64,000 bases of DNA from Patescibacteria group bacterium (GTDB lineage: Bacteria > Patescibacteriota > JABMPQ01 > JAQVVF01): the NCBI GenBank assembly GCA_041662665.1, contig JBAZSC010000002.1, positions 165,234 to 229,233 of the forward strand, read 5' to 3'. Made by a program: the position numbers and the translations under genes. Under the pieces are notes generated by a model, which saw only the letters and a list, made by a program, of their open reading frames with translations, searched no databases and was not told where the DNA came from. Positions 9,884-59,436 of this stretch are shown one piece after another. Every line of letters starts with the position of its first letter. Position 1 is the first letter of the stretch.

Positions 9884-10543
9884 TTAGTCAATTATGTCTT
9901 CTTCTAAAATTTTATCTAATTTTTTATCCAAATCAATTTCTTTTGATTCTTTCTTTTTCAAAGCTGGTTTTTCTTCCTTGTCCGCCGAAGCTTTAGCGAA
10001 GGCGGATTCTTCCTCTTTAACGTCAACAGGTTTTTCTTCCTTTTCTTTTTCTTCACCTTCAATCTTTTCTTCCTTGTCCGCCGGTTTGTCCACTGAAACT
10101 TTAGTGGAGGTGGAAGCTTTAGCGAAGGCGGATTTCTTTTCAACTTTTTCAGTTTTTTCTTCTTTCACTTCTTCTTTTGTTTCACCTTCACCTTCAACTT
10201 TTTCCTTATGTTCCTTGACTGCCGAAGCTTCAGCGGAGGCAGTAGCTTCTAATTTAACGTCTTTTTCTTGCTTTGTTACTAATATTCTGACGACATCCAT
10301 TTCATCAGCAACTTGATATCTAATCTTTTTAATTTTAGATGGATCAGCTTCAATCTTTGCAATAAAATAATATCCTTGGCTAAAATGTTTAATTTCATAA
10401 GCCAAATCTTTCATTCCCAAAAAATTTGATTCCAAAATTTTTGCATCAAACTTTGCTAAAATCTTTTCTAATTCTTGAGCCTTTTTTTCTGCTTGTTCAT
10501 CAGTCATTTTAGGAGACAAGAACATTGATAATTCGTACTTCAT
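9884..10543 (-). CDS. rpsF: 30S ribosomal protein S6 with a long Lys/Glu-rich C-terminal extension
   Basis: The N-terminal roughly 95 aa (MKYELSMFLSP...LAYEIKH..GYY...VVRILV) fit S6. The extension of about 120 aa contains three in-frame copies of the palindromic element encoding SAFAKAS-type peptides. The plus-strand ORFs 9894..10316 and 9958..10143 are shadows of this gene. Confidence 0.8.
   Translation of the reverse strand: MKYELSMFLSPKMTDEQAEKKAQELEKILAKFDAKILESNFLGMKDLAYEIKHFSQGYYFIAKIEADPSKIKKIRYQVADEMDVVRILVTKQEKDVKLEATASAEASAVKEHKEKVEGEGETKEEVKEEKTEKVEKKSAFAKASTSTKVSVDKPADKEEKIEGEEKEKEEKPVDVKEEESAFAKASADKEEKPALKKKESKEIDLDKKLDKILEEDIID
9981..10006. repeat. Palindromic element copy (TCCGCC-GAAGCTTTAGCGAAG-GCGGA) in frame in rpsF
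   Basis: Exact 26-mer also at 38264-38289; variants at 10077-10132, 10218-10241, 19057-19082 and 40655-40684. Confidence 0.7.
10077..10132. repeat. Nested palindromic element: outer TCCGCC...GCGGA interrupted by inner TCCACTGAAACTTTAGTGGA
   Basis: The sequence is tccgccggtttgTCCACTgaaactttAGTGGAggtggaagctttagcgaaggcgga. Confidence 0.6.
10218..10241. repeat. Palindromic element variant CTGCC-GAAGCTTCAGCGGAG-GCAG
   Basis: It encodes TASAEASAV in the rpsF tail. Confidence 0.55.
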
Positions 10544-12439: not shown

Positions 12440-12997
12440 ATGTTAAGCATGAACGATCTAAAATCAGGAACAATTATTGATTACGAAGATCAACCTTACG
12501 AAGTTTTATCCAAAGACTTTGTTAAAAATGCTCAAAGACGTCCAGTAATGTTTACCAAATTAAAAAACTTAATTTCTGGAAAAATCATTGAACATTCTTT
12601 CCAACAAAGCGATCGCTTGAATGAATCTGACGTTACCAAAAAAGACGCTCAATATATGTATGAAGACAATGGCAATTATAATTTCATGGACAGCGAGACT
12701 TATGAACAATTCTCTTTAGCCAAAAATATTCTAGGCAACAAAACTGATTTTTTATTAGAAAATGGCACAGTAAAAATTGTTTATTATAACAATGATCCAA
12801 TTAACATTGAATTACCTATTAAAATGGAATTCAAAATTATTGAAACTGCTCCAGGCGTAAAAGGAAATTCTGCAACAAACGCCATGAAAGAAGCAACAAT
12901 AGAGACTGGCAAAAAAATTCAAGTTCCATTATTCGTCAAAGAAGGAGATTTGATCAGAATTGATTCTAGAACTGGTGAATATTTGGAAAGAGTTTAA
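12440..12997 (+). CDS. efp: Elongation factor P
   Basis: The 185-aa product has three OB/KOW-like domains, and the N-terminus NDLKSGTIIDYEDQPYEV is typical of EF-P. The true start may be the Met at 12449. Confidence 0.9.
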   Translation: MLSMNDLKSGTIIDYEDQPYEVLSKDFVKNAQRRPVMFTKLKNLISGKIIEHSFQQSDRLNESDVTKKDAQYMYEDNGNYNFMDSETYEQFSLAKNILGNKTDFLLENGTVKIVYYNNDPINIELPIKMEFKIIETAPGVKGNSATNAMKEATIETGKKIQVPLFVKEGDLIRIDSRTGEYLERV

Positions 12998-13046: not shown

Positions 13047-13129
13047 ATATCCGTAATTTCCGAATATCCGAATATCTTAATTTCCGTCAGTACTTTATGG
13101 ACTTTAAAAACTTTATGAACTTTAGAAAC
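13041..13129. repeat. Composite tandem repeats: ATATCCGAAT family followed by AACTTTA(A/T)AA family (downstream of recA)
   Basis: atatccgtaatttccgaatatccgaatatcttaatttccgtc ... actttatggactttaaaaactttatgaactttagaaactt. ATATCCGAAT-family arrays also occur at 20911-20945, 25291-25330 and 44621-44650. Confidence 0.65.
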
Positions 13130-17982: not shown

Positions 17983-19023
17983 TTAACCTCCATAAAAACA
18001 TAAAGGATCAGGACCTTGCAACATATTGCCATTATAAGCAGAAAATCTTTGTGCTAAACATCCTCCTTTACATGAATCCAACAAAACGCATTTTCTACAT
18101 TTACCTTTTAATCTTTTATAACCATAACTTTGGAATCTTCTAAATATATCAACCATTGGATGTTTTAGCCAAAAATATTCCAAATTATTTTCCAAAATAT
18201 TACCAAATGCCGGATATTTCATTGCCGAACAATATGTCACATCGCCATTTGCTCTAATCAAAATCTTTTCTTGACCAATATTACAACTTCTAATTGGAAA
18301 ACTTTCATCATAACTATATCGTCTATCAATGTTATGTCCTAATATCAAATCAAAACGTTGAGGTATCAAATAAGAGAAAAATCTTTGCGCGACTCTAAAT
18401 TGTTCTTGATTCAAAACTAATTCTGGATGATTTGCGCAACTGCCTTGAACAACCAATCTCAATAAGTGCCAGTTCTTTACTCCCAGATCTCTCAACAAAT
18501 CATACATCAAACCCAATTCAAGATAATTCACTGCCATTACAGTAGTATGCACTTCAACTTTTAATCCTCTTGCAACAGCTAAGGCAATACTTGCCATCAA
18601 CAAATCAAATGATCCTTCTAGTCCTGTCACTTTTTCATGCGTTTCTTTCATCCCATGCAAACTAAAAACTATTCTGTCATCTTTATGAGAATAACGTCTC
18701 CAAAAATCAAAGAAAGCTTCTTTCAAAGAAAACATTTTTCCTTTTTCATTTTTATAAATAGCGCTCGTCTGCAATCTTACAGAAAAACCAAATCGCCATG
18801 CATAAAGCATTAAATCAATACAATCTTTTCGCATCAAAAGCTCGCCTCCGCTAATCGTAAAAATACTTGCCCCAAGCCATTTTGCTTGTCTCAAAATATC
18901 CATTATTTCTGCCTGCGATAATTCTCTTTCAAAAGGCAAACCAGCATTTGAAGAACAATGAAGGCAACTTAAAGCACATTGATTTGTGATCTCAATTGAA
19001 ATTTCTTTCAATAGCCTTGGCAT
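17983..19023 (-). CDS. Radical SAM enzyme with C-terminal SPASM domain
   Basis: The CALSCLHCSS (Cx3Cx2C) motif is present. A C-terminal Cys cluster (CNIGQ...YCSAMKY...CRKCVLLDSCKGGCLA) is typical of SPASM auxiliary Fe-S domains. A strong RBS (AAAGGAGGGAGA) precedes the gene. Confidence 0.8.
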   Translation of the reverse strand: MPRLLKEISIEITNQCALSCLHCSSNAGLPFERELSQAEIMDILRQAKWLGASIFTISGGELLMRKDCIDLMLYAWRFGFSVRLQTSAIYKNEKGKMFSLKEAFFDFWRRYSHKDDRIVFSLHGMKETHEKVTGLEGSFDLLMASIALAVARGLKVEVHTTVMAVNYLELGLMYDLLRDLGVKNWHLLRLVVQGSCANHPELVLNQEQFRVAQRFFSYLIPQRFDLILGHNIDRRYSYDESFPIRSCNIGQEKILIRANGDVTYCSAMKYPAFGNILENNLEYFWLKHPMVDIFRRFQSYGYKRLKGKCRKCVLLDSCKGGCLAQRFSAYNGNMLQGPDPLCFYGG

Positions 19024-19056
19024 TTCTCTTCTCCCTCCTTTGTCCCATCAACTTTG

Positions 19057-19082
19057 TCCACCGAAGCTTTAGCGCAGGTGGA
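19057..19082. repeat. Palindromic element variant TCCACC-GAAGCTTTAGCGCAG-GTGGA (intergenic, in the 5' region of the rSAM gene)
   Basis: Its arms and loop are homologous to those of the rpsF copies. Confidence 0.6.
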
Positions 19083-19162
19083 AGCGTAAACGAAGATGGA
19101 CTTGTTTTCAAAGAACATTTTCAATCAACAATATCATATTAATTTGATACTTACAATAAAAA

Positions 19163-19192
19163 ATAGAGGCACAAAATCTTGTGCCCCTAGAT
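19163..19192 (-). terminator. Intrinsic terminator hairpin, identical copy of the one at 20881..20910
   Basis: On the minus strand, a GGGGCACAA-GATT-TTGTGCC hairpin is followed by CTCTATTTTTT. Confidence 0.6.
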
Positions 19193-19237
19193 TAGAGATA
19201 GCATTCGAGAATCGTATTCGAGCTCGCATTAGAGAAA

Positions 19238-20794
19238 TCATTTCACCCCAATTGCAAAATACTGCGTCTTCGTTGGATATTTAGTGAAATACTTTACAAT
19301 GAATTTTCTGTTTTTCTTTATTACTTTAGCATCAGTAAATACTGTAGATATATTCTGCCAAGAACCACCTTTTTTCTTGTATTTCAAATAAAGATTTGAT
19401 GCTGTTGCTGATTTATTTTTCTTTAAAAATTTCTTTAATGCTTTCTTAGTATATTTGAATGTTACTTTAATTTTATATTTCTGTGATAACTTTTTTGCTT
19501 TGTATTTATATAGATTAGTCTTTAATTTCCAATTGCTTAAGAATGTCTTATTTGGATATTTGCTTAATTTATTCCATTGCATCCAATAAGCGCTGTTCTT
19601 TGTTAATTTTGTTGGAAGCTTGGTGAAATTGATAACTAGATTTTGGCCTGAAATTGTTTGTTGATTTAGAGCTGGCATCAACGTAACTTTGTCACCATTA
19701 ATCAAATTGTTCTCCTCTAAAAGCCTATCGTATTCTTTTTGCTCTTCAGCGCTTAAAGTGTATTTCCAGACCTTTCCGACATAACTTTCATCAGAATTAC
19801 TATCACCTCCAGCATAAATTGAACCATCTGAGACTTGAATCAAAGAATAAACATCAGACCCAGCCATTATTCCAGTAAAATCTGACCAAGAACCATTCGA
19901 ATATTTAGAAACTTTAGCATAAACACCATTACCACCTGCATAAATCGAACCATCTAAAGCCTGAGATAGAGAATAAACATGGGTCATATCCAGCGTACCA
20001 GTGATATCTGTCCAAGAATTATTTGAATATCTATAGACTTTAGCATAATTAGTAGAATAAAAACCACCTGAATAGCCACCAGCATAAATTGAACCATCTA
20101 TCGCCTGAAACAAAGATCGAACGTTAGACATATTTAATGTTCCAGTAACATCTGACCAAGAACCATTTGAATATTTAAAAACTTTACCATAATCATCACT
20201 ACCATCATAATAATGTCCTCCAGCATAAATTGAACTATCTGAAGCTTGAATCAAAGAAGTTACAACAGACATATTTGAAATTTCAGAGATACTGATCCAA
20301 GAACCATTTGAATATTTAAAAATTCTATCATCATAATTAAAACCATTATAGACATATCCACCAGCATAAATCGAACCATCTGAGGCTTGAAGTAAAGTAG
20401 TAACAAAAGACATATCCGATAATCCAGAAACATCAGTCCAAGAACCATTCGAATATTTATAGACTTTAGCAAGATAATCGCTAGCTAAAACATATCCGCC
20501 AACATAAATCGAACCGTCTGAGGCTTGAAGTAGAGAAGCTACATTAGACATATTTAATGTTCCAGTAATATCTGACCAAGAACCATTTGAATATTTAGAA
20601 ACTCTACCATAAAAATGGCTACCATCATCATAATTCCCACCGGCATAAATCGAACCATCTGAAGCATAAACCAAAGAATAAACTGTAGATATACTCAATG
20701 TCCCAGTAATATCTCCCCATTCAGCACTAGCAATTCCGCCTAATCCAAACAATAACCCCACGCAAAACAAACTTGTTAATAAAAACTTTCTCAT
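19238..20794 (-). CDS. Secreted beta-propeller repeat protein with the shared Lys-rich C-terminal module
   Basis: A signal peptide is followed by about eight repeats of roughly 45 aa (YSNGSW.D.TG...SLLQASDGSIYAGG). The C-terminal segment of about 150 aa is homologous to the C-termini of four other secreted proteins in this window. Confidence 0.7.
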   Translation of the reverse strand: MRKFLLTSLFCVGLLFGLGGIASAEWGDITGTLSISTVYSLVYASDGSIYAGGNYDDGSHFYGRVSKYSNGSWSDITGTLNMSNVASLLQASDGSIYVGGYVLASDYLAKVYKYSNGSWTDVSGLSDMSFVTTLLQASDGSIYAGGYVYNGFNYDDRIFKYSNGSWISISEISNMSVVTSLIQASDSSIYAGGHYYDGSDDYGKVFKYSNGSWSDVTGTLNMSNVRSLFQAIDGSIYAGGYSGGFYSTNYAKVYRYSNNSWTDITGTLDMTHVYSLSQALDGSIYAGGNGVYAKVSKYSNGSWSDFTGIMAGSDVYSLIQVSDGSIYAGGDSNSDESYVGKVWKYTLSAEEQKEYDRLLEENNLINGDKVTLMPALNQQTISGQNLVINFTKLPTKLTKNSAYWMQWNKLSKYPNKTFLSNWKLKTNLYKYKAKKLSQKYKIKVTFKYTKKALKKFLKKNKSATASNLYLKYKKKGGSWQNISTVFTDAKVIKKNRKFIVKYFTKYPTKTQYFAIGVK

Positions 20795-20880
20795 AATTTT
20801 TTGATTTTATTTTTATATAATAAATTTAGTTAATAATATTATACCACAATCAAAGAAGAAGAAGAAGTTATCCACAAAAA

Positions 20881-24814: not shown

Positions 24815-25174
24815 CTAAAAATCAGTCCCATTTACATCATTTTCATTATAATCAATTGTTATTTCTTCGCCAAAATAAATATTTCTAACAGCAATAGTAT
24901 CTTTAAATTGTCCTAGACTTTTTGTATTTGGATTTTCTGAATGATTTATAAACCTTGCATTATCAGTATCCAAATAAACATAATCTTCACCATTATCAAC
25001 AGCGTATGTGTCAAAAAATTCTTCTGCATTTTTCGGTATATCTTTTTTGTTTACTTTTATATCAATGACAGAATTAAAAACCCAAACAGATTGACCTTTT
25101 TTAATTTCTTGATCAGCAATCAAACCAATCCCTTTCCCATTTATTTCTTTTAACCTTGTCTTAACTACTAACAT
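24815..25174 (-). CDS. Minimal SET-domain protein (putative protein-lysine methyltransferase)
   Basis: The 119-aa product has GKGIGL (GxG), RFINHSENPN (NHSxxPN) and GEEITIDY (GEELxxDY) in canonical order. It lies between rpoB and rpoC on the same strand. Confidence 0.75.
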   Translation of the reverse strand: MLVVKTRLKEINGKGIGLIADQEIKKGQSVWVFNSVIDIKVNKKDIPKNAEEFFDTYAVDNGEDYVYLDTDNARFINHSENPNTKSLGQFKDTIAVRNIYFGEEITIDYNENDVNGTDF

Positions 25175-25330: not shown

Positions 25331-28300
25331 CTATTTACGTTCGTACTTTTTTTCTTCAGTTTCAAGAATATTTCCATTTTTATCCAAAATTTCAACATTC
25401 AAAGCTAAGCTTTTTAATTCTTTAACTAAAACGCTGAATGATTCTGGAACATTTGGCTGTCTGATTGGTTCACCCTTAATAATCGCTTCATAAGTTTTTG
25501 AACGTCCAATAACATCATCTGATTTTATTGTTAACAATTCCTGTAACACATGAGAAGCGCCATAAGCCTCAATTGCCCAAACTTCCATTTCACCAAATCT
25601 TTGTCCACCAAATTGTGCTTTACCGCCTAATGGCTGTTGAGTAACTAATGAGTACGGCCCGATTGATCTTTGATGGATCTTATCTTCAACTAAGTGATAA
25701 AGTTTCAAGATATACATCACACCAACTGTTGTTTTTTCCGTAAATGCATTACCTGTTCTACCATCATAAAGTTGAACTTTGCCATTTTCTGGCCAGTTTG
25801 CTCTTTTTAATTCAGATTTAATTGTTTCTTCTTTTACACCATCCAAAACTGGAGTTGCAACTTTATAGCCTAATAATTTTGCCGCCATGCCTAAGTGAAC
25901 TTCCAAAATCTGACCTTGATTCATACGAGAAGGCACGCCTAATGGATTCAAAATAATATCAACTGTTCTTCCATCTGGCAAATATGGCATATCTTCCTGT
26001 GGAACAATCTTTGAGATAACACCTTTATTACCATGACGTCCAGCTAATTTATCGCCAACTTGAATTTTTCGAAGTTGTGCGACAGAAACTTGAATCGTCT
26101 TGATAACGCCAGTTGGCAATTTATCGCCTTTTTCTCTAGAAAATATTTTAACATCAACAACCTTACCATGTTCGCCATGTTGCAAATATAATGAAGTGTC
26201 TTTTACATCTCTAGCTTTTTCACCAAAGATCGCTCTTAATAATCGCTCTTCTGCTGTTAATTCAGTTTCACCTTTTGGTGTAATTTTACCTACCAAAATA
26301 TCACCTGAAGTAACTTGAGCTCCGACTCTAACAATTCCTTCTTCATCCAAATCTTTTAGTTTTTCTTCACCAACATTTGGAATATCGCGAGTAACTAATT
26401 CTGAACCTAATTTTGTATCACGAACATCAATCGAAAAATCCTCAATATGAATTGAGCTATAAACATCTTCGCGAACTAGTCTATCAGAAATCAACATCGC
26501 GTCTTCAAAATTTCCACCTTGCCATGCCATGAATGCAACTACAACATTTTTTCCTAAAGCTAATTCGCCTTTATCAGTTGAAGATCCATCAGCAATAATC
26601 TGACCCTTTTTTACTTTCTCACCAACTGAAACGATTGGTCTTTGATCAATACAAGTTGAAGTATTTGATCTTAAGAAATTTAATAATTTATATTCTCTAA
26701 TATTTTTATTAGCTTCCAATACTTTTATTCTTTTTCCAGATACTTCAATGATCTCTCCATCTTTTTTACAAACAATAACTACACCTGAATCTTTAGCAGC
26801 TCTCTCTTCACAACCAGTACCTACAATTGGTGAATCAGGATTAATACATGGCACAGCCTGACGTTGCATGTTTGAACCCATCAAAGCACGATTAGCATCA
26901 TCATGTTCCAAAAATGGAATCAAAGCTGTAGTAATAGATACAATTTGTTTTGGAGAAACATCCATATATTCGATTCTGCCTGTTGCTTCCATTGATGGCT
27001 CGCCTGCAACTCTAACTTCTGCTCTTTTATCAACAAAATAGCCTTTTTCATCAATTAAAATTGTTGCTGGAGCTGTCACATGTTTTTCTTCCTCAATTGC
27101 ATCTAGATATTCAATTTCATCAGTAACTCTTGATCTAATTTGAACTACTTTCAAACCAGCATTTTTAATTTTATTGATATCTTTTTTATCAAGAACTTTG
27201 TCAGCTGGAATAATCACTCTTCTTTTTTCATCTAGGATTCCAGATTTATAAGAAATCTCGCCGATTGCCTTTTCTGCTCTTTCAATTGGAATTTCTCTTA
27301 AAATCTTTCTATAAGGAGTTTCAATAAAACCATATTCATTAATTCTTGCATATGAAGAAAGATGGCCTACCAAACCAATGTTTGGACCTTCAGGAGTCGA
27401 AATAGGACAAATTCTGCCATAGTGAGTTCTGTGTACATCACGTACATCAAAACCAGCTCTTTCACGAGACAAACCTCCAGGACCCATTGCTGATAATCTT
27501 CTCTTATGTTCTAACTCGGATAATGGATTTGTTTGATCCATAAATTGAGAAAGTTGAGAAGACATGAAAAATTCTCGAATTGAAGAAATAACTGGTCTAG
27601 CATTAATCAATTGAGCTGGAGTAGAAGTATTAATATCCAAAGTACTCATTCTATCTCTAATGATTCTTTCCATTCTCATCAAACCAACTCTCATTTTATT
27701 TTGGACCAATTCACCAATCGCTCTAACTCTTCTATTTCCTAAATGATCAATATCATCAGGATTGCCTTGATTAATATTTAATTTAATTAATTCTTTTATA
27801 ACATTAACAAGATCTTCTTTTCTTAAAACTCTATTTTGCTTGTTAATAATAATTTTTTCACCTAATCTTTTGTTCATTTTGAAACGTCCAACTTTGCCAA
27901 AATCATATCTTTCAAAATTAAAAAACATTGCTTCAATCAATGATCTTGCATTATCCGCAGTTGCTAAATCTCCAGGTCTAATTCTTTTATATACTTCAAT
28001 AAAACCTTCAGCTTGATTTTTTGCAATATCTTTTTCTAATGTATTTTTGATAAATTTTCGATCAGGCAAAGTATCAACATCCTTGAATTGAGCCAAAATT
28101 TCAGAATCTGTGGAAAACCCAAAAGCCCTTAACAATGACGTTACAGGTACTTTTCTTTTGCGATCGATTTTTGCATAAATAACACTTTTTGAGTCAGTTT
28201 CAATTTCTATCCAAGCGCCTCTGTTTGGAATAATTTTTGCGCCAAATAATTTTTCGCCTTTTGTTAATTCAGCAGTAAAAAATACGCCAGGAGATCTAAT

Positions 28301-28696
28301 CAATTGAGAAACAACTACTCTTTCAACACCATTGATAATAAATGTGCCTCGATCAGTCATCAATGGAAATTCGCCTAAATATACTTCTTGTTCTTTTATT
28401 TCACCAGTTTGTTTATTAACTAATTGAACTTTGCAACGAACTGAAGCTTCATAAGTTGCATTTCTTGATTTTGCTGCAACTTCATCAACTTTTGGTTCAT
28501 CAATTACATAATCAACAAAACTTAATTCTAGATTTTTTTCAGTAAAATCTTTGATTGGAGAAATTTCATCAAACAATTCTCTCAAACCTTCTTTAAAAAA
28601 CCAATCATAAGAATCAGTTTGAACTCTGATTAAATCAGGAAGTTCAATAACATCATGCAATTTAGTAAAAAATTTTCTTTTTTGCTTTTGAGGCAT
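25331..28696 (-). CDS. rpoB: DNA-directed RNA polymerase subunit beta
   Basis: Conserved beta-subunit regions are present throughout. The ORF-track start at 28741 uses TTG and adds 15 hydrophobic residues. The ATG at 28696 ([10 protein letters not shown]...) is the more plausible start. Confidence 0.95.
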
Positions 28697-28744
28697 ACTA
28701 TAAAAAATTAATATATAATAACAAATACTAATCATTTGCAATTA

Positions 28745-28803: not shown

Positions 28804-29023
28804 CGCTAAAGATAACAAAAAATGACCAAAAATTAACACTTTTGGCTTATTTAAAGTCTTTTATAAATATCACGCCCGAGGCTATTCACCTCTGCTTTGA
28901 ATATCATACTTCAAGTATAAGCGTTTTATTTAAAAAGTCAAGCTATTTTTAATTAAAAACAATATTTAGGCTTATCTAAAACAAAAATAAAGCTATCAAA
29001 TTTTCTTATCCACAACGACTTCT

Positions 29024-30253
29024 TTACATCAAAGCTGCAGTTAGAATATTTCTTAATTCCGTTAAACGACCCAGTTCTTCTTCATCTTTAGTCTTTCCAA
29101 TCTTCTTTTCTACCCCTTTTAATTCTTTTTTATATTTGCTTCTTACTCCTCTTTCTTTTTTGGATAATGTAAAAAAAGTTTTCAATTCTTTTCCTGTTCC
29201 CATCACTGAACCAGCAATTCCAGACAAACTAGTTTCTGCTAAATTTCTAGCACTTGCCAAAATTTTTGCCATATTAGCACTAGCTTTCTCCAATCCAGGC
29301 GTTTGTCTAAGCTGTTCAGCAGTATAACCCAATTCTCCAGCAATACTCCCAACATTATTAACAACCTTAACCAACCTGTTTTCAGCATCATGAGCTACCT
29401 GTTTTTCTTTCATAAATTGATCTCTTGACACATCATTAACTTTTTTTTCAAGTGATCCAGTATCTTCAGATGAGATTCTTTCATCTTCAACCATTTTAGC
29501 TAATTCCTCAAGTGTTGGTGGCTCTATATCATCATATTCTGCCTTCGGAACATTAGGTGCTGGCAATTTTGCCTCTTTTTTTGACACAGCTAAACCACCT
29601 TCAATCAATCCTTGTACGTCAACATACTCCTCTTCACCACGTATCTCTTTAGGTGTTGGTTCATCGATTTCAACCACACCTTCTCCTTCCTGCGAAGAAT
29701 CTGGCAATGTACGTTGTACATCAGCTCTGCGAGTAAATTCAGTTTCAGTAAAATTGCCGGTTTTTTCATCATATTCAGGCAGATCCGGTACTAAAACAAG
29801 CTCAGTCGGATCAAATTTTTCTAAGTCTGCTTCAGTTAATTCCATTTCATCTGTTTCTAAAGCAGGAGCTGCTTGAACTTTTTGTTCGCCATAAGCACCT
29901 TCCTTAACTGTTGGCACATCCTCAATATTTATTTCTTTTTGAGTCGGCGCTTCATAAATATCTTTCATTGCTTGATCAAGTTTATTGCTCCATTCAGCCC
30001 AGACTTTTTTTTCATCATCAGTTTCTGGCATTCTTGGCAAATCTTCTTTTTTAAATATTTCAACGCCTTGTAAACCAATTTGTTCAATTTGCGAATCCTC
30101 AACTTCTGGAATTACTTCTTCAGCTGTTACAGCTTCTTCAATTCCTGGTTTTATTTCTCTGCCTTTTTTGTCTATAGAAACTTTTTTAAATTCTGTTTCA
30201 CCAGCTGCTTTTCTTTGGACTTCTAACGCTTGCGCATTATCACCTTTTGCCAT
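29024..30253 (-). CDS. Acidic low-complexity protein of unknown function (paralog of 30739..31899)
   Basis: The 409-aa product is Glu/Asp-rich with no signal peptide. Its C-terminal block (GELGYTAEQL...GKELKTFFT) resembles that of 30739..31899 (ELGYGAVSAGENL...GKSLKSFFSG). Confidence 0.5.
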   Translation of the reverse strand: MAKGDNAQALEVQRKAAGETEFKKVSIDKKGREIKPGIEEAVTAEEVIPEVEDSQIEQIGLQGVEIFKKEDLPRMPETDDEKKVWAEWSNKLDQAMKDIYEAPTQKEINIEDVPTVKEGAYGEQKVQAAPALETDEMELTEADLEKFDPTELVLVPDLPEYDEKTGNFTETEFTRRADVQRTLPDSSQEGEGVVEIDEPTPKEIRGEEEYVDVQGLIEGGLAVSKKEAKLPAPNVPKAEYDDIEPPTLEELAKMVEDERISSEDTGSLEKKVNDVSRDQFMKEKQVAHDAENRLVKVVNNVGSIAGELGYTAEQLRQTPGLEKASANMAKILASARNLAETSLSGIAGSVMGTGKELKTFFTLSKKERGVRSKYKKELKGVEKKIGKTKDEEELGRLTELRNILTAALM

Positions 30254-30279
30254 ATTTTTAAAAAATTAATTTTTAATAA

Positions 30280-30669
30280 CTATTGGATTTGCTCTTTTAT
30301 TCTTTTTTTCTTGTCTTCTTCAACCAATTTTACTGCTTCTTGAAAAACATCATCTAGCCTTTTATCTAATTTCTCAATTCCTTTTTGATATTCGTCATTT
30401 GCATATTTCATCCTTTTCAACATTCTAAAATAAATCAAATCCAAAACTAATTTGTCTTGATGAATTTGAGTACCCAAACCTTCTTTAGTTTTTTCTTTGT
30501 CTTTAATTCCTTTTTGCACTTTTTTGATATGATTATCAATTGCTTTGATAATGCTATCTCGCACTTTTTTACTTAAACCTTCTGTTTCTATTTTTTTAAT
30601 CAAACTATTTTTCTCGCGAGTTGTTAAATCGGATTGCTTGATTAGTTCTATTGCTTTTTTTGTTTCCAT
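30280..30669 (-). CDS. Hypothetical coiled-coil protein
   Basis: The 129-aa product is Lys/Glu-rich and predicted helical. It lies between two paralogous acidic proteins on the same strand. Confidence 0.45.
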   Translation of the reverse strand: METKKAIELIKQSDLTTREKNSLIKKIETEGLSKKVRDSIIKAIDNHIKKVQKGIKDKEKTKEGLGTQIHQDKLVLDLIYFRMLKRMKYANDEYQKGIEKLDKRLDDVFQEAVKLVEEDKKKRIKEQIQ

Positions 30670-30738
30670 ATTTTTGTATTTAAAAGATTAAATAATTAAG
30701 CTTGTCCACCAGAGTCTCCCGCAGAAGACGCAGGTACA

Positions 30739-31899
30739 TTATTCACCAAATTTTGCTCTTAATTCTTTAAAACGAACTTCTTGCGCTTTTAATTTTTCAT
30801 ATTCTCTTCTTTCCATTTTTTCTTTTGCAGATCCTACTAATACTTTTGCTTGTTCCTTTTTAAATCTTTCCCATTCCGCTATTTTCCTTTTCGTTCTAGC
30901 AATTTCAATTGGAAAATCAGTTGCCATTTCTTTATATGCTTTAACAGCCTCTTCAGAAACCGTTCTTAATCCTGAATCCATTCTTTTCATTGCTATTTTT
31001 GGCAAATTTTCTCCAGCCGAAACAGCACCATATCCTAATTCAGTCATAGTTTTACCAAAAGAAGTTAAAGTATTTTTTACAGGACCGCTAAAAAAACTTT
31101 TTAATGATTTACCTGCCTTATCTAATCTATCTTTTGCAAATCTTGTTAAGCTCTCTACTCTTTGCCTGCCCAATTCAGTATCCCAAATTTGATCTTCTTC
31201 TGCTTTTTTTACTAAAGCTAATCTCTCTGTATCTCTAACAAGAGTATCGGTATTATATATAACAGTATCAACATCTTCGCCACTTGGATTAACCAATGCT
31301 AAATCCAAAGCTGTTTCAACTCTTTGCCAATCGCTATCAAATTGTGCGTCAAATTCAGGATCTAAAAATTGCTCATTATTTCCAGCATTTAAAATCTCTA
31401 AAACCTCAGCTGTAGCTACTTCTTGTCCAGTATCTTTTTTGAGCTCTCTGACCATTTGAGCTAAAACATCTTCTTCTGGAAGTCCTTCCTCGAGTGAAGA
31501 TTTTGGAGGCTCAACTTTTGGAAGCTCAATTGTCTGAGCGCTTTCGATTTGCTTATGTGCGGCAGCCCTTCTCAAAGAAGCTTTTTCTTCTTCTGTTGCT
31601 CCACCTTTTTCAGTTTGAGTAATTTTATGTTCTGCTTTTACACCAGTAGTTGTTATTGGTTGACCATTTTCATCAACTTCTTTAACATCTTTATCAGCTA
31701 CTTCAGTTCCTTGTGCTTCTGGCAACGTTGGTGCAGTTTCCTCTTTAATTGTTGGCGCACCAATCTCAGCAACTGTTGGCGCTTCTTCAATCACAACGCC
31801 CTTGCCACTTTTTCCTTTTTTTCTCGCAGATCTCGATTTTCCTTTATAAAAAGCTTCCTGTTCTTTTGGATTTGGCACATCAATACTTTTTCTTGCCAT
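30739..31899 (-). CDS. Acidic low-complexity protein of unknown function (paralog of 29024..30253)
   Basis: The 386-aa product has PT/E-rich repeats (APTVAEIGAPTIKEETAPTLPEAQ) and a C-terminal block shared with 29024..30253. Confidence 0.5.
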   Translation of the reverse strand: MARKSIDVPNPKEQEAFYKGKSRSARKKGKSGKGVVIEEAPTVAEIGAPTIKEETAPTLPEAQGTEVADKDVKEVDENGQPITTTGVKAEHKITQTEKGGATEEEKASLRRAAAHKQIESAQTIELPKVEPPKSSLEEGLPEEDVLAQMVRELKKDTGQEVATAEVLEILNAGNNEQFLDPEFDAQFDSDWQRVETALDLALVNPSGEDVDTVIYNTDTLVRDTERLALVKKAEEDQIWDTELGRQRVESLTRFAKDRLDKAGKSLKSFFSGPVKNTLTSFGKTMTELGYGAVSAGENLPKIAMKRMDSGLRTVSEEAVKAYKEMATDFPIEIARTKRKIAEWERFKKEQAKVLVGSAKEKMERREYEKLKAQEVRFKELRAKFGE

Positions 31900-31968
31900 A
31901 AATTTTAATTTTATTTTTTAACAAAAACTACCAATAATTAAGTATAGCACAAAATAACAAGTTTCGCA

Positions 31969-34845: not shown

Positions 34846-36897
34846 TTACTTCACGCCAATCGTCAGCAATGTGTCTTTCTGTTTAAAATATCTGAAATCA
34901 GTTGCAAATGTATTTTTCTTAGTCTTCTGTTTTGTATTCGCTATCAATTTCAACTTGTTAGCATTGATCCAAGTCTTAGTTCCTTTGTCATAGATTTTTA
35001 ACCATAACTTCTTTTCAGCTTGTTTTTTCGTTAGCTTCTTTAAAACAGAATTCTTCAGTCTCAATTTATTCACCAATTTAGTAGTATAGTAAAACTTTAT
35101 TCTTACCTTAAACATTTTATTCTGATATTTTACTACCTTCTTTTTGTAAGTCTTCAATTTCGCACTACTACAACTCAAACTGTTATAGCAATCCGCATAA
35201 TTGCTTTCAGCATTTATCAATTTTTTTCTATAAGCTTTTCTATATGTATAAAGATTTGTTCTAACTTTCCAATATCTTTTAATCGTATTTGATTTGTATT
35301 TTGGATATTTTTTATTATATTTTTTGTATCTAAAAGTCTGCAACCAATACCTAGTTGGATCATTAGGAACTTCTTTCCAAGTATAAACTAAATCATAATT
35401 AACTATTTCTTGACCAATAATATCCTCTGTTACAGTTCGCCTTTCAGATTCACCAGTTTCCTCTTCGGCAGCTGATTCAGTTAAAGCAGTTGATATTGTA
35501 TTGCCTGCCCAATCTGACACTCTGAAATATATTGTTTTAACAGTTGAACTCGAAGCAGGATATATACGATCAGTAAAAGTTTCTGAAGTCAAAGCTGTTC
35601 CTATTCCAGCTGTCAAAGGATTGCAAGTATCATTTTCATCAATGCAATAATACTTTGCTCCACCCATTTTTGCATAATCAGATGCCGACATTTTATAACT
35701 AAATTCAGCTCCTGCCTTGCCAGTTAAAGCAACAGTTGCAGTTGGAATAACAGAATCAAGTAAAACTAAATTTTGATTATCATTACCAGTGGAATAATCT
35801 GATATAAAATAATTTTCATTACCATTTATCATTGATGTGTTTGTATTGCCCGCATCCATAGATTCTATTACTGTATCGCTAATTCCAGCAGAGCTATTTG
35901 TAGCATAATTTAAAAAATAGGCTGAAGTATAAGAAGAATGAGAAATATGAGAATAATTTTGACTATCTAATACAATCGATGGTGCTCCACCAATTCCAGT
36001 ACTATTGCAAGTATAAGATTCTGAAGTAAAACCGCTCACACTGCCAGCAGCAACTTTCAAACAAAACGTTGAGCCATTGTAATAAAAATAACCAATTCTT
36101 ACAACATTATCGCTTCCGATAGAAATACTATTATTTTTATACAAAAAATGACTTAGCGCAATAGTAGTAGCAACAGCAACATCCAGCGACCATGACCCAT
36201 TCGCATGCAATTGAATATATCTAATAGCTGCAGTACTTCCTCTATAATATGAAATATGAATATTATCAGATGAATCAACAACCGCCGATATATCCCATCC
36301 ATTATTTCCTGAAACAGCTGCATTTTCTGTAATCCAACTGTCACCACTTAAATATGCATGTTTTACATAACTAGTACCAGCATCAAAAACTTTTTGATAA
36401 AAAACATGGGGAGTACCATTTGAAGTTAAAACTATTGATGTATGATAACCTGTATCGCCATCAGCGTCAGCCGTCCAAACAGAAGACCACGAACCACCAG
36501 TATTTTTATAAACGTACAAATTTGAATCCGATTGAAAACTAATCCAAATATTATTATTAGACTTGTCTATCGCAATCGAACAATATTTTCCGAAATCAAC
36601 AAACAATGAACGCCCAACAACTTCAACTTGCCAAGCAGTTCCATCCCAATATGCATGTTTCAATCCATGATATGTCCCATCCTCATAATACGAACAAAGA
36701 TGAGGATAATCATTACTATCAAGAGCGATAAATCTATCACCAAAATAATCCTTGGCATCACCAACTACGTCTGCAAAAGTCACCTTTCCACTTTCATTCG
36801 TTTGCGTCACTGCCTTCGCTTGATTTGTATTAGCAATCATTCCAAATGCAAAGAAAATTGCTAAAAAACAAAGTAAAGACAATACTTTTTTCTTCAT
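34846..36897 (-). CDS. Secreted repeat protein with the shared Lys-rich C-terminal module
   Basis: A signal peptide is followed by W-containing beta-propeller-like repeats, a CHB_HEX_C-like segment (TVKTIYFRVSDWAGN), and a C-terminus homologous to the other four secreted proteins (RYWKVRTNLYTYRK...TIGVK). Confidence 0.65.
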   Translation of the reverse strand: MKKKVLSLLCFLAIFFAFGMIANTNQAKAVTQTNESGKVTFADVVGDAKDYFGDRFIALDSNDYPHLCSYYEDGTYHGLKHAYWDGTAWQVEVVGRSLFVDFGKYCSIAIDKSNNNIWISFQSDSNLYVYKNTGGSWSSVWTADADGDTGYHTSIVLTSNGTPHVFYQKVFDAGTSYVKHAYLSGDSWITENAAVSGNNGWDISAVVDSSDNIHISYYRGSTAAIRYIQLHANGSWSLDVAVATTIALSHFLYKNNSISIGSDNVVRIGYFYYNGSTFCLKVAAGSVSGFTSESYTCNSTGIGGAPSIVLDSQNYSHISHSSYTSAYFLNYATNSSAGISDTVIESMDAGNTNTSMINGNENYFISDYSTGNDNQNLVLLDSVIPTATVALTGKAGAEFSYKMSASDYAKMGGAKYYCIDENDTCNPLTAGIGTALTSETFTDRIYPASSSTVKTIYFRVSDWAGNTISTALTESAAEEETGESERRTVTEDIIGQEIVNYDLVYTWKEVPNDPTRYWLQTFRYKKYNKKYPKYKSNTIKRYWKVRTNLYTYRKAYRKKLINAESNYADCYNSLSCSSAKLKTYKKKVVKYQNKMFKVRIKFYYTTKLVNKLRLKNSVLKKLTKKQAEKKLWLKIYDKGTKTWINANKLKLIANTKQKTKKNTFATDFRYFKQKDTLLTIGVK

Positions 36898-43973: not shown

Positions 43974-44528
43974 TTACTTTTGCCTTATTTTAACATCATA
44001 CAAAATTTCTTCCAGCCTCTTCAAATTTCTTTTAGCTTCATCGAATTTTACTCTCAATTTTCCAGTCAGATCAAATTTGATTAACTCGCCAATAATATCA
44101 TCAACAGCTTGCTTATAATCAGAAATTTTTTCAGCCTCGCCTTTTGTTACCAAAATTACAGCCATTCTTACCATCTCACCAGTCAAATCACAAATTCCAG
44201 AAATCATTGTTTCAAAACCAAATTTCAATTCTGATTTAAAATCAATATCACCACTATTTAAATATTCAAAAAACATTTTTGCTTCCACAAATTCTTCCGC
44301 AGCTTCATAATATGCACCAACTCCTGAAGAATTACCCAAAGCAATCAATTTCTTTTCAGCATCTGTCAAAACTTCTTCCGCTTTTTTCAAATCATCGCGA
44401 TGCATTAAAAAAATCGCTTGTTTTGACATTTTTAAAACAACTCTTGCCTCACCAATAATTTTTTCGCGCATCAAACTATGCTCTTGATTTTCGACTAATA
44501 ATCTTTCAAATAATTCTTTGTTCAGCAT
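43974..44528 (-). CDS. Hypothetical all-helical protein, possibly translin-family
   Basis: The motif ISGICDLTGEMVRMAVI resembles the translin/TRAX GxxDLTGELMR signature. The call is weak. Confidence 0.35.
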   Translation of the reverse strand: MLNKELFERLLVENQEHSLMREKIIGEARVVLKMSKQAIFLMHRDDLKKAEEVLTDAEKKLIALGNSSGVGAYYEAAEEFVEAKMFFEYLNSGDIDFKSELKFGFETMISGICDLTGEMVRMAVILVTKGEAEKISDYKQAVDDIIGELIKFDLTGKLRVKFDEAKRNLKRLEEILYDVKIRQK

Positions 44529-54740: not shown

Positions 54741-54851
54741 AAATTTTTGTATTAATTAATAATAATTTTAAAAATTTTTTGTTATTTTTAATTTCTAATT
54801 TATCATTTACATTTTACCCCCCCCTATTATTTGTAAAGCCAGCACCTGTGG

Positions 54852-54879
54852 ATAAAAAAACGAACTACAAGAGTTCGTT
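54852..54879 (-). terminator. Intrinsic terminator downstream of small ORF 54897..55085
   Basis: On the minus strand, a perfect 8-bp stem AACGAACT-CTTGT-AGTTCGTT is followed by TTTTTTT. Confidence 0.6.
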
Positions 54880-59324: not shown

Positions 59325-59436
59325 ATTTGTTTTTCTTATATAAATTTTGATAATCTAAGTATACCACATCTAAAAGAAAAAATTATCCACAAAAAAAGAG
59401 CGTCAAAACGCTCTACTCAAAAAAAGAACAAAAAGA

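Follow-up and report, generated by a model that had tools for sequence, protein, structure and literature searches.

The 64,000-nucleotide (nt) stretch of DNA analyzed here (the window, with a G+C content of ∼31%) comes from a metagenome-assembled genome (MAG) of Patescibacteria (candidate phyla radiation [CPR]) and carries, upstream of rpoB, a cassette of three open reading frames (ORFs), which we call ORF386, ORF129, and ORF409 after the lengths of their products in amino acids (aa). All three are protein-coding genes under purifying selection, with an approximately ten-fold spread in constraint, and the conserved core of the cassette is a pair, in which a member of the ORF129 family follows a long protein whose N-terminal part is acidic and whose C terminus is basic and helical. 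By profile comparison, ORF386 and ORF409 are distant paralogs over their C-terminal ∼100 residues, and the three families match no described family by any search made. Our tentative proposal is that the three products form a cytoplasmic "hub-and-arms" assembly confined to the clade, a reading that we put somewhat short of probable. The three genes, taken from the ORF listing, and the genes that flank them are as follows.

30739-31899, minus strand: ORF386 (NCBI WC663_04230), the "A-type" long protein, 386 aa
30280-30669, minus strand: ORF129 (NCBI WC663_04225), a small basic all-helical protein, 129 aa
29024-30253, minus strand: ORF409 (NCBI WC663_04220), the "C-type" long protein, 409 aa
31969-32649, minus strand: tsaB-type gene upstream of ORF386 (Pfam TsaD family, E 1.1e-12)
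25331-28741 as listed, minus strand: rpoB, downstream of ORF409, with the likely true start, judging from relatives, at the ATG at 28696

NCBI annotates all three products as hypothetical proteins. An earlier reading, made from the letters of this DNA and its ORFs (the sequence-only reading), had placed three ORFs of about these sizes at these positions, co-directional with tsaB upstream and rpoB downstream, and the ORF listing agrees. On the 3′ side of rpoB, a small SET-domain ORF and then rpoC follow on the same strand. The order tsaB, ORF386-like gene, 129-aa gene, ORF409-like gene, rpoB, and rpoC recurs in GCA_028699085.1 (locus L001) and GCA_964574655.1 (L007, from a 654-kb contig), and the same six-gene order was found on the short read-assembly contigs L009 and L011. 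Orthologs of ORF386 are present in L001, L007, L009, L011, L012, and L015, and those of ORF409 comprise P0002/L006, the proteins of L001, L007, and L011, and a 374-aa protein of L020.

The genes of this region differ widely in how fast they change, a contrast that lay beyond the reach of the sequence-only reading. Between the window and L001, identity is 97% for rpoB, 95% for rpoC, 92% for ORF129, 84% for a DUF212 gene, 80% for a Mur ligase gene, 74% for tsaB, 47% for ORF386, and 35% for ORF409, and the long proteins range from 35 to 54% identity between genomes. The Nei-Gojobori ratio of nonsynonymous to synonymous substitution rates (dN/dS) is 0.03 to 0.07 for ORF129, matching rpoB (0.03 to 0.05), 0.13 to 0.21 for tsaB, ∼0.39 to 0.47 for ORF386 (among the three closest genomes, i.e., the window, L001, and L007), and 0.32 to 0.65 for ORF409. 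The two long genes are the fastest-evolving genes of the region, and the gene between them is as slow as RNA polymerase (RNAP); its product is exactly 129 aa long, with zero indels, in 7/7 close relatives. The conserved order, the dN/dS values below 1, and the absence of indels in ORF129 therefore identify three real genes under purifying selection. The claim that they are lineage-specific and belong to no assignable family has held up: they are conserved in relatives and under purifying selection, and profile searches and synteny turned up neither homology to a known family nor an absence from related genomes.

The three-gene cassette of the sequence-only reading exists as such in the window and its closest relatives, but it is not the basic unit, since relatives carry a pair of one long and one small gene. 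Defined as an ORF129-family gene (112 to 133 aa, with an AIELIKxSDL...G head and a long helix) directly after a long gene of acidic-disordered and basic-helical architecture, the pair was found in the window, L001, L007, L009, L011, L012, L015, L020, L017 (two pairs), and L023; L018 fits as well, except that its long partner (246 aa, largely Gly/Ala/Lys-rich repeats) has no acidic arm. Wherever upstream DNA is present, an architecturally matching long gene stands directly before the ORF129-family gene, and the spacers between the two measure only 1 to 69 nt (window, 69; L001, 33; L007, 34; L009, 29; L011, 9; L012, 19; L015, 30; L020, 9; L017, 9 and 1; L018, 23; and L023, 27). The long gene can be of either type. 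L012 and L015 show a possible tsaB, an ORF386-type gene, the small gene, and rpoB, with no ORF409-type gene, and L020 shows tsaB, an ORF409-type gene, the small gene, rpoB, rpoC, and ftsK, with no ORF386-type gene; the three-gene form of the window is the state that keeps both long paralogs.

Two tandem pairs (419 plus 116 aa and 451 plus 133 aa) lie far from rpoB at positions 975 to 4481 of L017 (GCA_043826745.1), and the pair therefore duplicates and moves as a unit. These tandem pairs adjoin a cyclic di-AMP (c-di-AMP) receptor-like gene, opposite DciA. In L018 and L023, the long partner has diverged beyond recognition by hidden Markov models (HMMs); the L023 pair does not adjoin rpoB, and rpoB is absent from the short L018 contig. 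The linkage to rpoB holds within one sub-clade with a syntenic tsaB...ftsK neighborhood, not across the family.

ORF129 contains 33 Lys plus Arg and 24 Asp plus Glu residues, with an isoelectric point (pI) of 9.56 and a net charge of +9. Its description as a 129-aa Lys/Glu-rich helical protein fits: Lys and Glu are abundant, and AlphaFold2 (AF2) predicts an all-helical protein (predicted local distance difference test [pLDDT] score, 84) with helices at residues 2 to 12, 17 to 30, and 34 to 128. An N-terminal three-helix head (residues 1 to 45), with the motif AIELIKxSDLxxxEKxxLIxxIExxGL, is followed by a long amphipathic helix whose LDLIY core is invariant. Among 1.84 billion cluster representatives, the ORF129 profile matched 11 proteins, all but one of them 112 to 133 aa long and, where named, from Patescibacteria/Parcubacteria-group MAGs. 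No further members were found in scans of JGI metagenomes and IMG/VR, and a scan of GTDB species representatives returned no genomes beyond two that had been found before.

The long proteins are acidic overall (ORF386, pI 5.39, 19% Asp plus Glu, net charge −8; ORF409, pI 4.66, 22% Asp plus Glu, net charge −30), yet the last ∼130 residues of both are net basic. They had been called Glu/Asp/Pro/Thr-rich and low in complexity; the acidity is borne out, but Pro (4 to 5%) and Thr (6 to 7%) are only mildly enriched, and both are better described as Glu/Lys-rich charged proteins than as classic low-complexity sequences. The earlier statement that the long proteins lack signal peptides is borne out: their N termini are charged, their Kyte-Doolittle score over 19-residue windows does not exceed 1.09, and neither a signal peptide nor a transmembrane (TM) segment was found in any of the three proteins, which are therefore taken to be cytoplasmic.

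ORF386 begins with a basic N-terminal tag (MARKSIDVP...), continues with a ∼230-aa acidic, indel-rich disordered region that holds EEAPTVAE/ETAPTLPE motifs, and closes with a ∼150-aa net-basic helical C-terminal domain, the protein ending in ...EYEKLKAQEVRFKELRAKFGE; in its AF2 model, residues 1 to 180 are unstructured and residues 181 to 384 helical. ORF409 is laid out likewise, with a ∼270-aa acidic disordered region and then a ∼140-aa net-basic helical C-terminal domain ending in LGRLTELRNILTAALM, and its acidic region retains the short conserved motifs KKEDLPRMP, KVWAEW, EAPTQKEI/EDVPTVKE, YGEQKVQAAP, and VPKAEYDDxEPP. Indels of the long genes pile up in the N-terminal two-thirds, and the C-terminal ∼140 to 150 residues are almost free of gaps. 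One motif, E-x-P-T-φ-x-E (e.g., EEAPTVAE, EDVPTVKE, and EELPTHKE), occurs in one to three copies in the acidic regions of both long families and is carried by nearly all members of both types; in a six-frame translation of the 64-kb window, it was found within the ORF386 and ORF409 genes only.

The sequence-only reading had considered the long proteins to be two paralogs sharing a conserved C-terminal block, ELGY...GKxLKxFF. That block is not colinear: ORF409 has ELGY at residues 307 to 310 and then GKELKTFF at 354 to 361, and ORF386 shows the opposite order, with GKSLKSFF at 263 to 270 and ELGY at 287 to 290. Nor does pairwise BLASTP support the paralogy, since its best match covers nine residues with an E value of 0.24, which is at chance level. 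It is at the level of family profiles, over the C-terminal ∼100 residues, that the two families come together: hhalign of seven ORF386-type against six ORF409-type sequences gave a probability of 95.1% and an E value of 3.2e-8 over 95 columns, pairing residues 250 to 349 of ORF386 with residues 271 to 366 of ORF409 and aligning ELGY but not the GKxLKxFF strings. An earlier hhalign run with smaller family alignments (63.6% probability) was replaced by this one once the long protein of L020 had been placed as C-type (C-type HMM, E 2.5e-19). In control comparisons, a reversed alignment gave an E value of 0.21, and the best E values were 0.13 among 30 column shuffles and 1.3e-3 among 30 shuffles of seven-column blocks. 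The paired modules are located as follows.

30853-31152, minus strand: C-terminal homology module of ORF386 (residues 250-349, by hhalign), including SFGKTMTELGYG; strongly amphipathic
29156-29443, minus strand: C-terminal homology module of ORF409 (residues 271-366, by hhalign), including NVGSIAGELGYT

Amphipathic periodicity of 3.5 residues reaches a z score of 6.5 at residues 246 to 301 of ORF386 and of 6.8 at residues 281 to 364 of ORF409, and the modules are rich in small residues (SFGKTMTELGYGAVSAG and SLSGIAGSVMGTG). The idea that ORF129 is a stand-alone copy of the C-terminal module of the long proteins was rejected, with an hhalign probability of <0.5%.

Searches of Pfam and NCBIfam with the three proteins gave no significant match, and Pfam searches with 16 ORF129 family members gave none either, with no ribosomal, sigma, or scaffold domain at E ≤1. 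The best PHROGs match to the three proteins (E 0.0086) was to an unrelated family, PADLOC returned nothing, and no relatives were found in IMG/VR viral contigs, so that none of the three resources indicated a phage or defense system. Sequence-profile searches of the PDB with the ORF129 family, the A-type C-terminal domain, and the C-type family returned chance coiled-coil matches with E values of at least 0.006.

In the hub-and-arms assembly that we propose, ORF129 would be the structurally constrained core, built of its small three-helix head and the ∼95-residue amphipathic helix, which would most likely oligomerize as a coiled coil. ORF386 and ORF409 would be diverged paralogous adaptor subunits that co-assemble with ORF129 and with each other, docking through their homologous C-terminal helical modules, which are amphipathic and net basic, and each would project a polyanionic disordered arm of 230 to 280 residues, whose motifs (E-x-P-T-φ-x-E and the Trp-containing acidic ones) would serve to attract, sequester, or repel partners. 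As the minimal ancestral unit, we envisage one long and one small subunit, probably translated as a coupled pair, with the window lineage keeping both long paralogs. The physical interaction, the coiled-coil oligomerization, and the role as a scaffold or in client binding are what we infer; the cellular target may be the nucleoid or transcription machinery or, instead, the membrane or division site. The proposal draws on the constant pairing of long and small genes, the contrast in rates, the homologous modules and shared motif of the long proteins, and the lack of export signals. It is also consistent with the two-gene loci, in which either an ORF386-type (L012 and L015) or an ORF409-type (L020) gene fills the one position upstream of the small gene, and with the distribution of charge, ORF129 (+9) and the C-terminal domains being net basic and the arms strongly acidic. 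Several points weigh against it. The terminal helices show no obvious complementarity of charge along their length. AF2 modeled ORF386 poorly (pLDDT 48.9) and gave ORF129 a low predicted template-modeling (pTM) score of 0.43, and the 95-residue helix of ORF129 may instead be a hairpin, given a conserved LG at around residues 65 and 66. The family is also tiny (11 clusters at 50% identity), which limits comparative power, and neighboring genes that are conserved together do not necessarily encode a complex. An analogy of architecture says nothing about the process served.

It is unlikely, in our judgment, that the three genes are functionally unrelated lineage-specific "filler" orphans whose adjacency has no mechanistic meaning, even if the weak constraint on the long proteins (dN/dS up to 0.65) and the lack of functional annotation anywhere would agree with this. 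The long and small genes are paired in every informative context, including clades in which they lie away from rpoB and the tandemly duplicated pair of L017; ORF129 is under very strong purifying selection; and the long genes are homologous and share the specific E-x-P-T-φ-x-E motif.

The position of the cassette suggests another explanation, which we regard as doubtful, namely, that it encodes lineage-specific RNAP accessory factors, with acidic arms acting as nucleic acid mimics like the C-terminal tail of the Firmicute delta subunit and with ORF129 docking on RNAP or DNA through a sigma-region-4-like head. The cassette lies directly upstream of rpoB-rpoC in the window, L001, L007, L011, L012, L015/L016, L019, and L020 to L022, and L006 is linked to rpoB via an RNA element described below; this linkage extends down to ∼40% ORF129 identity. 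Long polyanionic disordered regions are present in the long proteins, and the constraint on ORF129 equals that on rpoB. In addition, the ORF129 profile matches P0016 (E 1.4e-7), a 589-aa protein with seven near-identical Sigma70_r4 repeats (Pfam E 3.8e-57), and hhalign of the ORF129 family against a sigma region 4 alignment gave an E value of 1e-3 over 46 columns. The seven-repeat architecture of P0016 is odd in itself, and its near-identical repeats inflate the E value of the match; the region 4 alignment had a probability of only 20%, none of the 16 ORF129 members matched PF04545 or PF08281 at E ≤1, and the AF2 model of ORF129 has no helix-turn-helix turn, so we did not accept the head as a sigma region 4 homolog. 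A HARE-HTH or other delta-type domain was not detected, either, and the distant members L017 and L023 are not next to rpoB.

The sequences at both ends of the cassette bear on the same question, and four elements can be recognized there.

31941-31949, minus strand: extended −10-like TGcTATACT, a candidate cassette promoter in the 69-nt spacer between tsaB and ORF386, ∼45 nt before the ORF386 ATG
29006-29014, minus strand: DnaA-box-like perfect 9-mer (gene strand, TGTGGATAA), 10 nt past the stop codon of ORF409
28914-28941, minus strand: predicted sigma-70-type promoter TTGACT-N16-TATACT upstream of rpoB (10/12 consensus matches)
28816-28910, minus strand: predicted ∼95-nt structured RNA upstream of rpoB (RNAalifold, covariance model)

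A TGnTATAnT-like block (by pattern match in the alignment only) is kept upstream of the cassette in the window, L001, L007, L009, and L011, and TTGAC and TATAnT of the rpoB promoter are invariant in eight aligned loci. The ∼95-nt RNA consists of a 5′ hairpin, an A-rich spacer, a GCCAAAA...TTTTGGC terminator hairpin, and a U-run; RNAalifold predicts 23 base pairs, and the 4 with compensatory changes lie in the 5′ hairpin. Covariance model R1 found one copy per rpoB-bearing locus at 81 to 114 bits, including L006, on which it had not been trained (L001, 12943-13037; L007, 7908-8002; L011, 2955-3049; L012, 2143-2237; L006, 1527-1621; L015, 2030-2123; L019, 600-694; and L020, 2564-2657), and no Rfam family matched this RNA, which is a candidate rpoBC leader/attenuator or small RNA. 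Between ORF386 and ORF129, the spacer of the window has a GC-rich stretch that was considered as a regulatory hairpin and rejected, as it is not conserved in relatives. On these predictions, the cassette appears to be a transcription unit of its own, and rpoBC appears to have its own promoter and a leader/attenuator or small RNA gene.

The DnaA-box-like 9-mer marks the downstream boundary of the cassette; it is present at the cassette/rpoB junction in 8/8 aligned loci, nearer the −35 element in L011, and among the fetched loci was found at this junction only. Cumulative GC skew showed no inflection, and the element is therefore probably a regulatory site rather than a replication origin (oriC). 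In the window, perfect DnaA-box 9-mers (TTATCCACA/TGTGGATAA) are also present at 20868-20876, 54847-54855, and 59383-59391, which with 29006-29014 makes 4/4 intergenic; L001 has DnaA boxes at 12839-12847 and 13052-13060, the second copy after the leader terminator.

With separate predicted promoters and a terminator-bearing leader after the cassette, the earlier argument that a housekeeping context suggests function is weakened. The whole tsaB...ftsK neighborhood is syntenic in these genomes, and the adjacency of the cassette to rpoB looks like inherited gene order rather than proof of a shared function, which counts against the RNAP accessory factors as well.

We likewise see little likelihood that the proteins are amphipathic-helix proteins of the membrane or division site, similar to LEA proteins, apolipoproteins, synuclein, or DivIVA, with modules that bind membrane or form a cytoskeletal lattice and acidic arms that serve as entropic bristles. 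The Gly/Ala/Ser-rich C-terminal modules with their strong amphipathic periodicity would suit such a role, as would the Gly/Ala/Lys-rich L018 partner, and genes for a Mur ligase and for a PAP2-like DUF212 protein are among the neighbors of the cassette. The sub-threshold matches that point in this direction, to apolipophorin-III (E 2.9 to 7), ATP synthase b, and DUF948 (7/16 ORF129 members, best E 0.022), are all nonsignificant, however; at E ≤1, Pfam returned no domain of DivIVA, PspA, phasins, or LEA proteins; a hydrophobic anchor is absent; and the envelope genes nearby belong to other transcription units or are encoded on the other strand.

A more elaborate proposal, which we think quite improbable, would make the cassette a Patescibacteria-specific transcription module in which a sigma-region-4-like, coiled-coil ORF129 docks on RNAP or DNA and tethers one or two polyanionic mimic arms, as an analog of delta, alongside the DnaA box, promoter, and 95-nt leader that would control rpoBC. 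Finally, we dismiss almost entirely the view that these are divergent ribosomal stalk proteins at the ancestral rplJ-rplL position, with L10-like long proteins and an L7/L12-like ORF129, for which the slot directly upstream of rpoB, the length of ORF129, and the likeness by eye of its first two helices (AIELIKQSDLTTREKNSLIKKIETEGL) to the L12 N-terminal domain could be adduced, because ORF129 is basic with a long helix, the long proteins exceed L10 in size more than twofold and change far too fast for ribosomal proteins, and no Pfam or PDB ribosomal match was obtained.

The ultra-small Patescibacteria are symbionts that have mostly not been cultured, and little is known of their cell biology. 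Should the hub-and-arms assembly prove to be a real complex, this phylum would have a new structural or regulatory assembly, one not described before, where new means that there is no detectable relation to a described family and not that a new mechanism has been demonstrated. Genes that are lineage-specific and whose function is unknown are very common in Patescibacteria, for which 54,343 such clusters are reported in one catalog (PMC9132574), and novelty alone therefore marks a candidate for follow-up and not a surprise. What lifts the cassette above this background is the conservation of ORF129, at the level of RNAP, across a very small phyletic range (11 clusters among the 1.84 billion representatives), which suggests that it is indispensable very locally, together with its obligate pairing with hypervariable acidic partners and the interchangeable paralog types. 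Fast-evolving acidic partners around a fixed core would provide a natural system in which to follow the diversification of disordered arms. A by-product of possibly equal practical interest is the rpoB leader: the DnaA-box-like site, the promoter, and the terminator-bearing ∼95-nt RNA without an Rfam family point to regulated rpoBC read-through in the clade.

Several other genes of the window stood out. The 119-aa SET-domain gene (24815-25174, minus strand; Pfam SET, E 1.6e-11) is an insertion that separates rpoB from rpoC; in L001, L007, and L020, rpoC follows rpoB directly, without it. Between rpoC and ftsK (17983-20794, minus strand), the window encodes a 518-aa protein with Reg_prop repeats and a radical-SAM/SPASM protein, a pair that is an insertion of the window lineage, as ftsK directly follows rpoC in L001, L007, and L020. 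A 184-aa protein (43974-44528, minus strand) matches the Translin family (PF01997, E 3.8e-16), which is mainly eukaryotic and archaeal and unusual in bacteria. The homolog of ribosomal protein S6 (9884-10543, minus strand) is 219 aa long, with the S6 domain confined to residues 2 to 91 and a C-terminal extension of ∼125 residues. A secreted-looking protein of 683 aa (34846-36897, minus strand), with an N-terminal hydrophobic signal, a Lys/Tyr-rich C-terminal region, and no Pfam domain, is a further fast-evolving orphan of the same neighborhood, with 53% identity to its L001 ortholog (5077-7059 of L001).

Compared with known systems, the cassette resembles rplJ-rplL in lying directly upstream of rpoB, in involving acidic proteins, and in having a small protein of about 125 to 130 aa. 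The sequence-only reading had noted that it occupies this position; indeed, no rplJ or rplL was found among the window ORFs of at least 90 aa that were scanned, but the position carries no functional weight. Since all bacteria have L10 and L7/L12, their genes should lie elsewhere in the genome. L7/L12 is acidic (pI about 4.5 to 5) and has an N-terminal domain for dimerization and L10 binding, a flexible hinge rich in Ala and Gly, and a C-terminal domain of the alpha/beta type, whereas ORF129 has a pI of 9.56 and a charge of +9, no Ala/Gly hinge, and, by AF2, a long helix in place of an alpha/beta C-terminal domain. We rejected ORF129 as L7/L12 at an hhalign probability of 0.4%, obtained with an L7/L12 alignment; none of its family members matched the Ribosomal_L10, L12_N, or L12 C-terminal Pfam models at E ≤1, and the PDB search returned no ribosomal protein. 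L10, with a Ribosomal_L10 domain of ∼100 aa in a total length of ∼165 to 180 aa, evolves slowly; ORF386 and ORF409 were rejected as L10, having no Pfam or NCBIfam match, being 2 to 2.5 times its size, and evolving at a dN/dS of 0.32 to 0.65, compared to 0.03 to 0.05 for rpoB.

Sigma-70 region 4 (PF04545) aligns weakly with residues 8 to 53 of ORF129, including an S-x-L-T-x-R-E-K-x-x-L helix and the helix after it, but where the turn and the recognition helix would be expected, AF2 predicts the continuous helix of residues 34 to 128. The delta subunit (RpoE) of Firmicutes is about 170 aa long, with a HARE-HTH fold at its N terminus and an acidic tail at its C terminus. The likeness is that a polyanionic disordered stretch is joined to a small part that is folded or helical, with the link to transcription coming, in our case, from gene neighborhood only; the polarity is reversed here (acidic N terminus and helical C terminus), the proteins are ∼400 aa long, the link to rpoB is not universal, and Pfam and NCBIfam gave no HARE-HTH or RpoE delta match for the three proteins. 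Delta is described as acting together with HelD in the recycling of RNAP (PMC7749165).

In their architecture, the long proteins come closest to PopZ of Caulobacter (functionally, also to HubP and DivIVA-like proteins), with a short and conserved N-terminal tag, a long linker that is acidic and disordered, and a C-terminal helical region in a cytoplasmic protein without an enzymatic domain. This comparison is purely an architectural analogy, and none of the three proteins or the ORF129 relatives matched the DivIVA, GpsB, or PopZ Pfam models at E ≤1. PopZ is an alphaproteobacterial protein of about 177 aa that self-assembles through a C-terminal oligomerization region, with no dedicated small partner; in contrast, the long proteins described here are always accompanied by a separate and far more conserved small protein, which in the window is the 129-aa product of ORF129.

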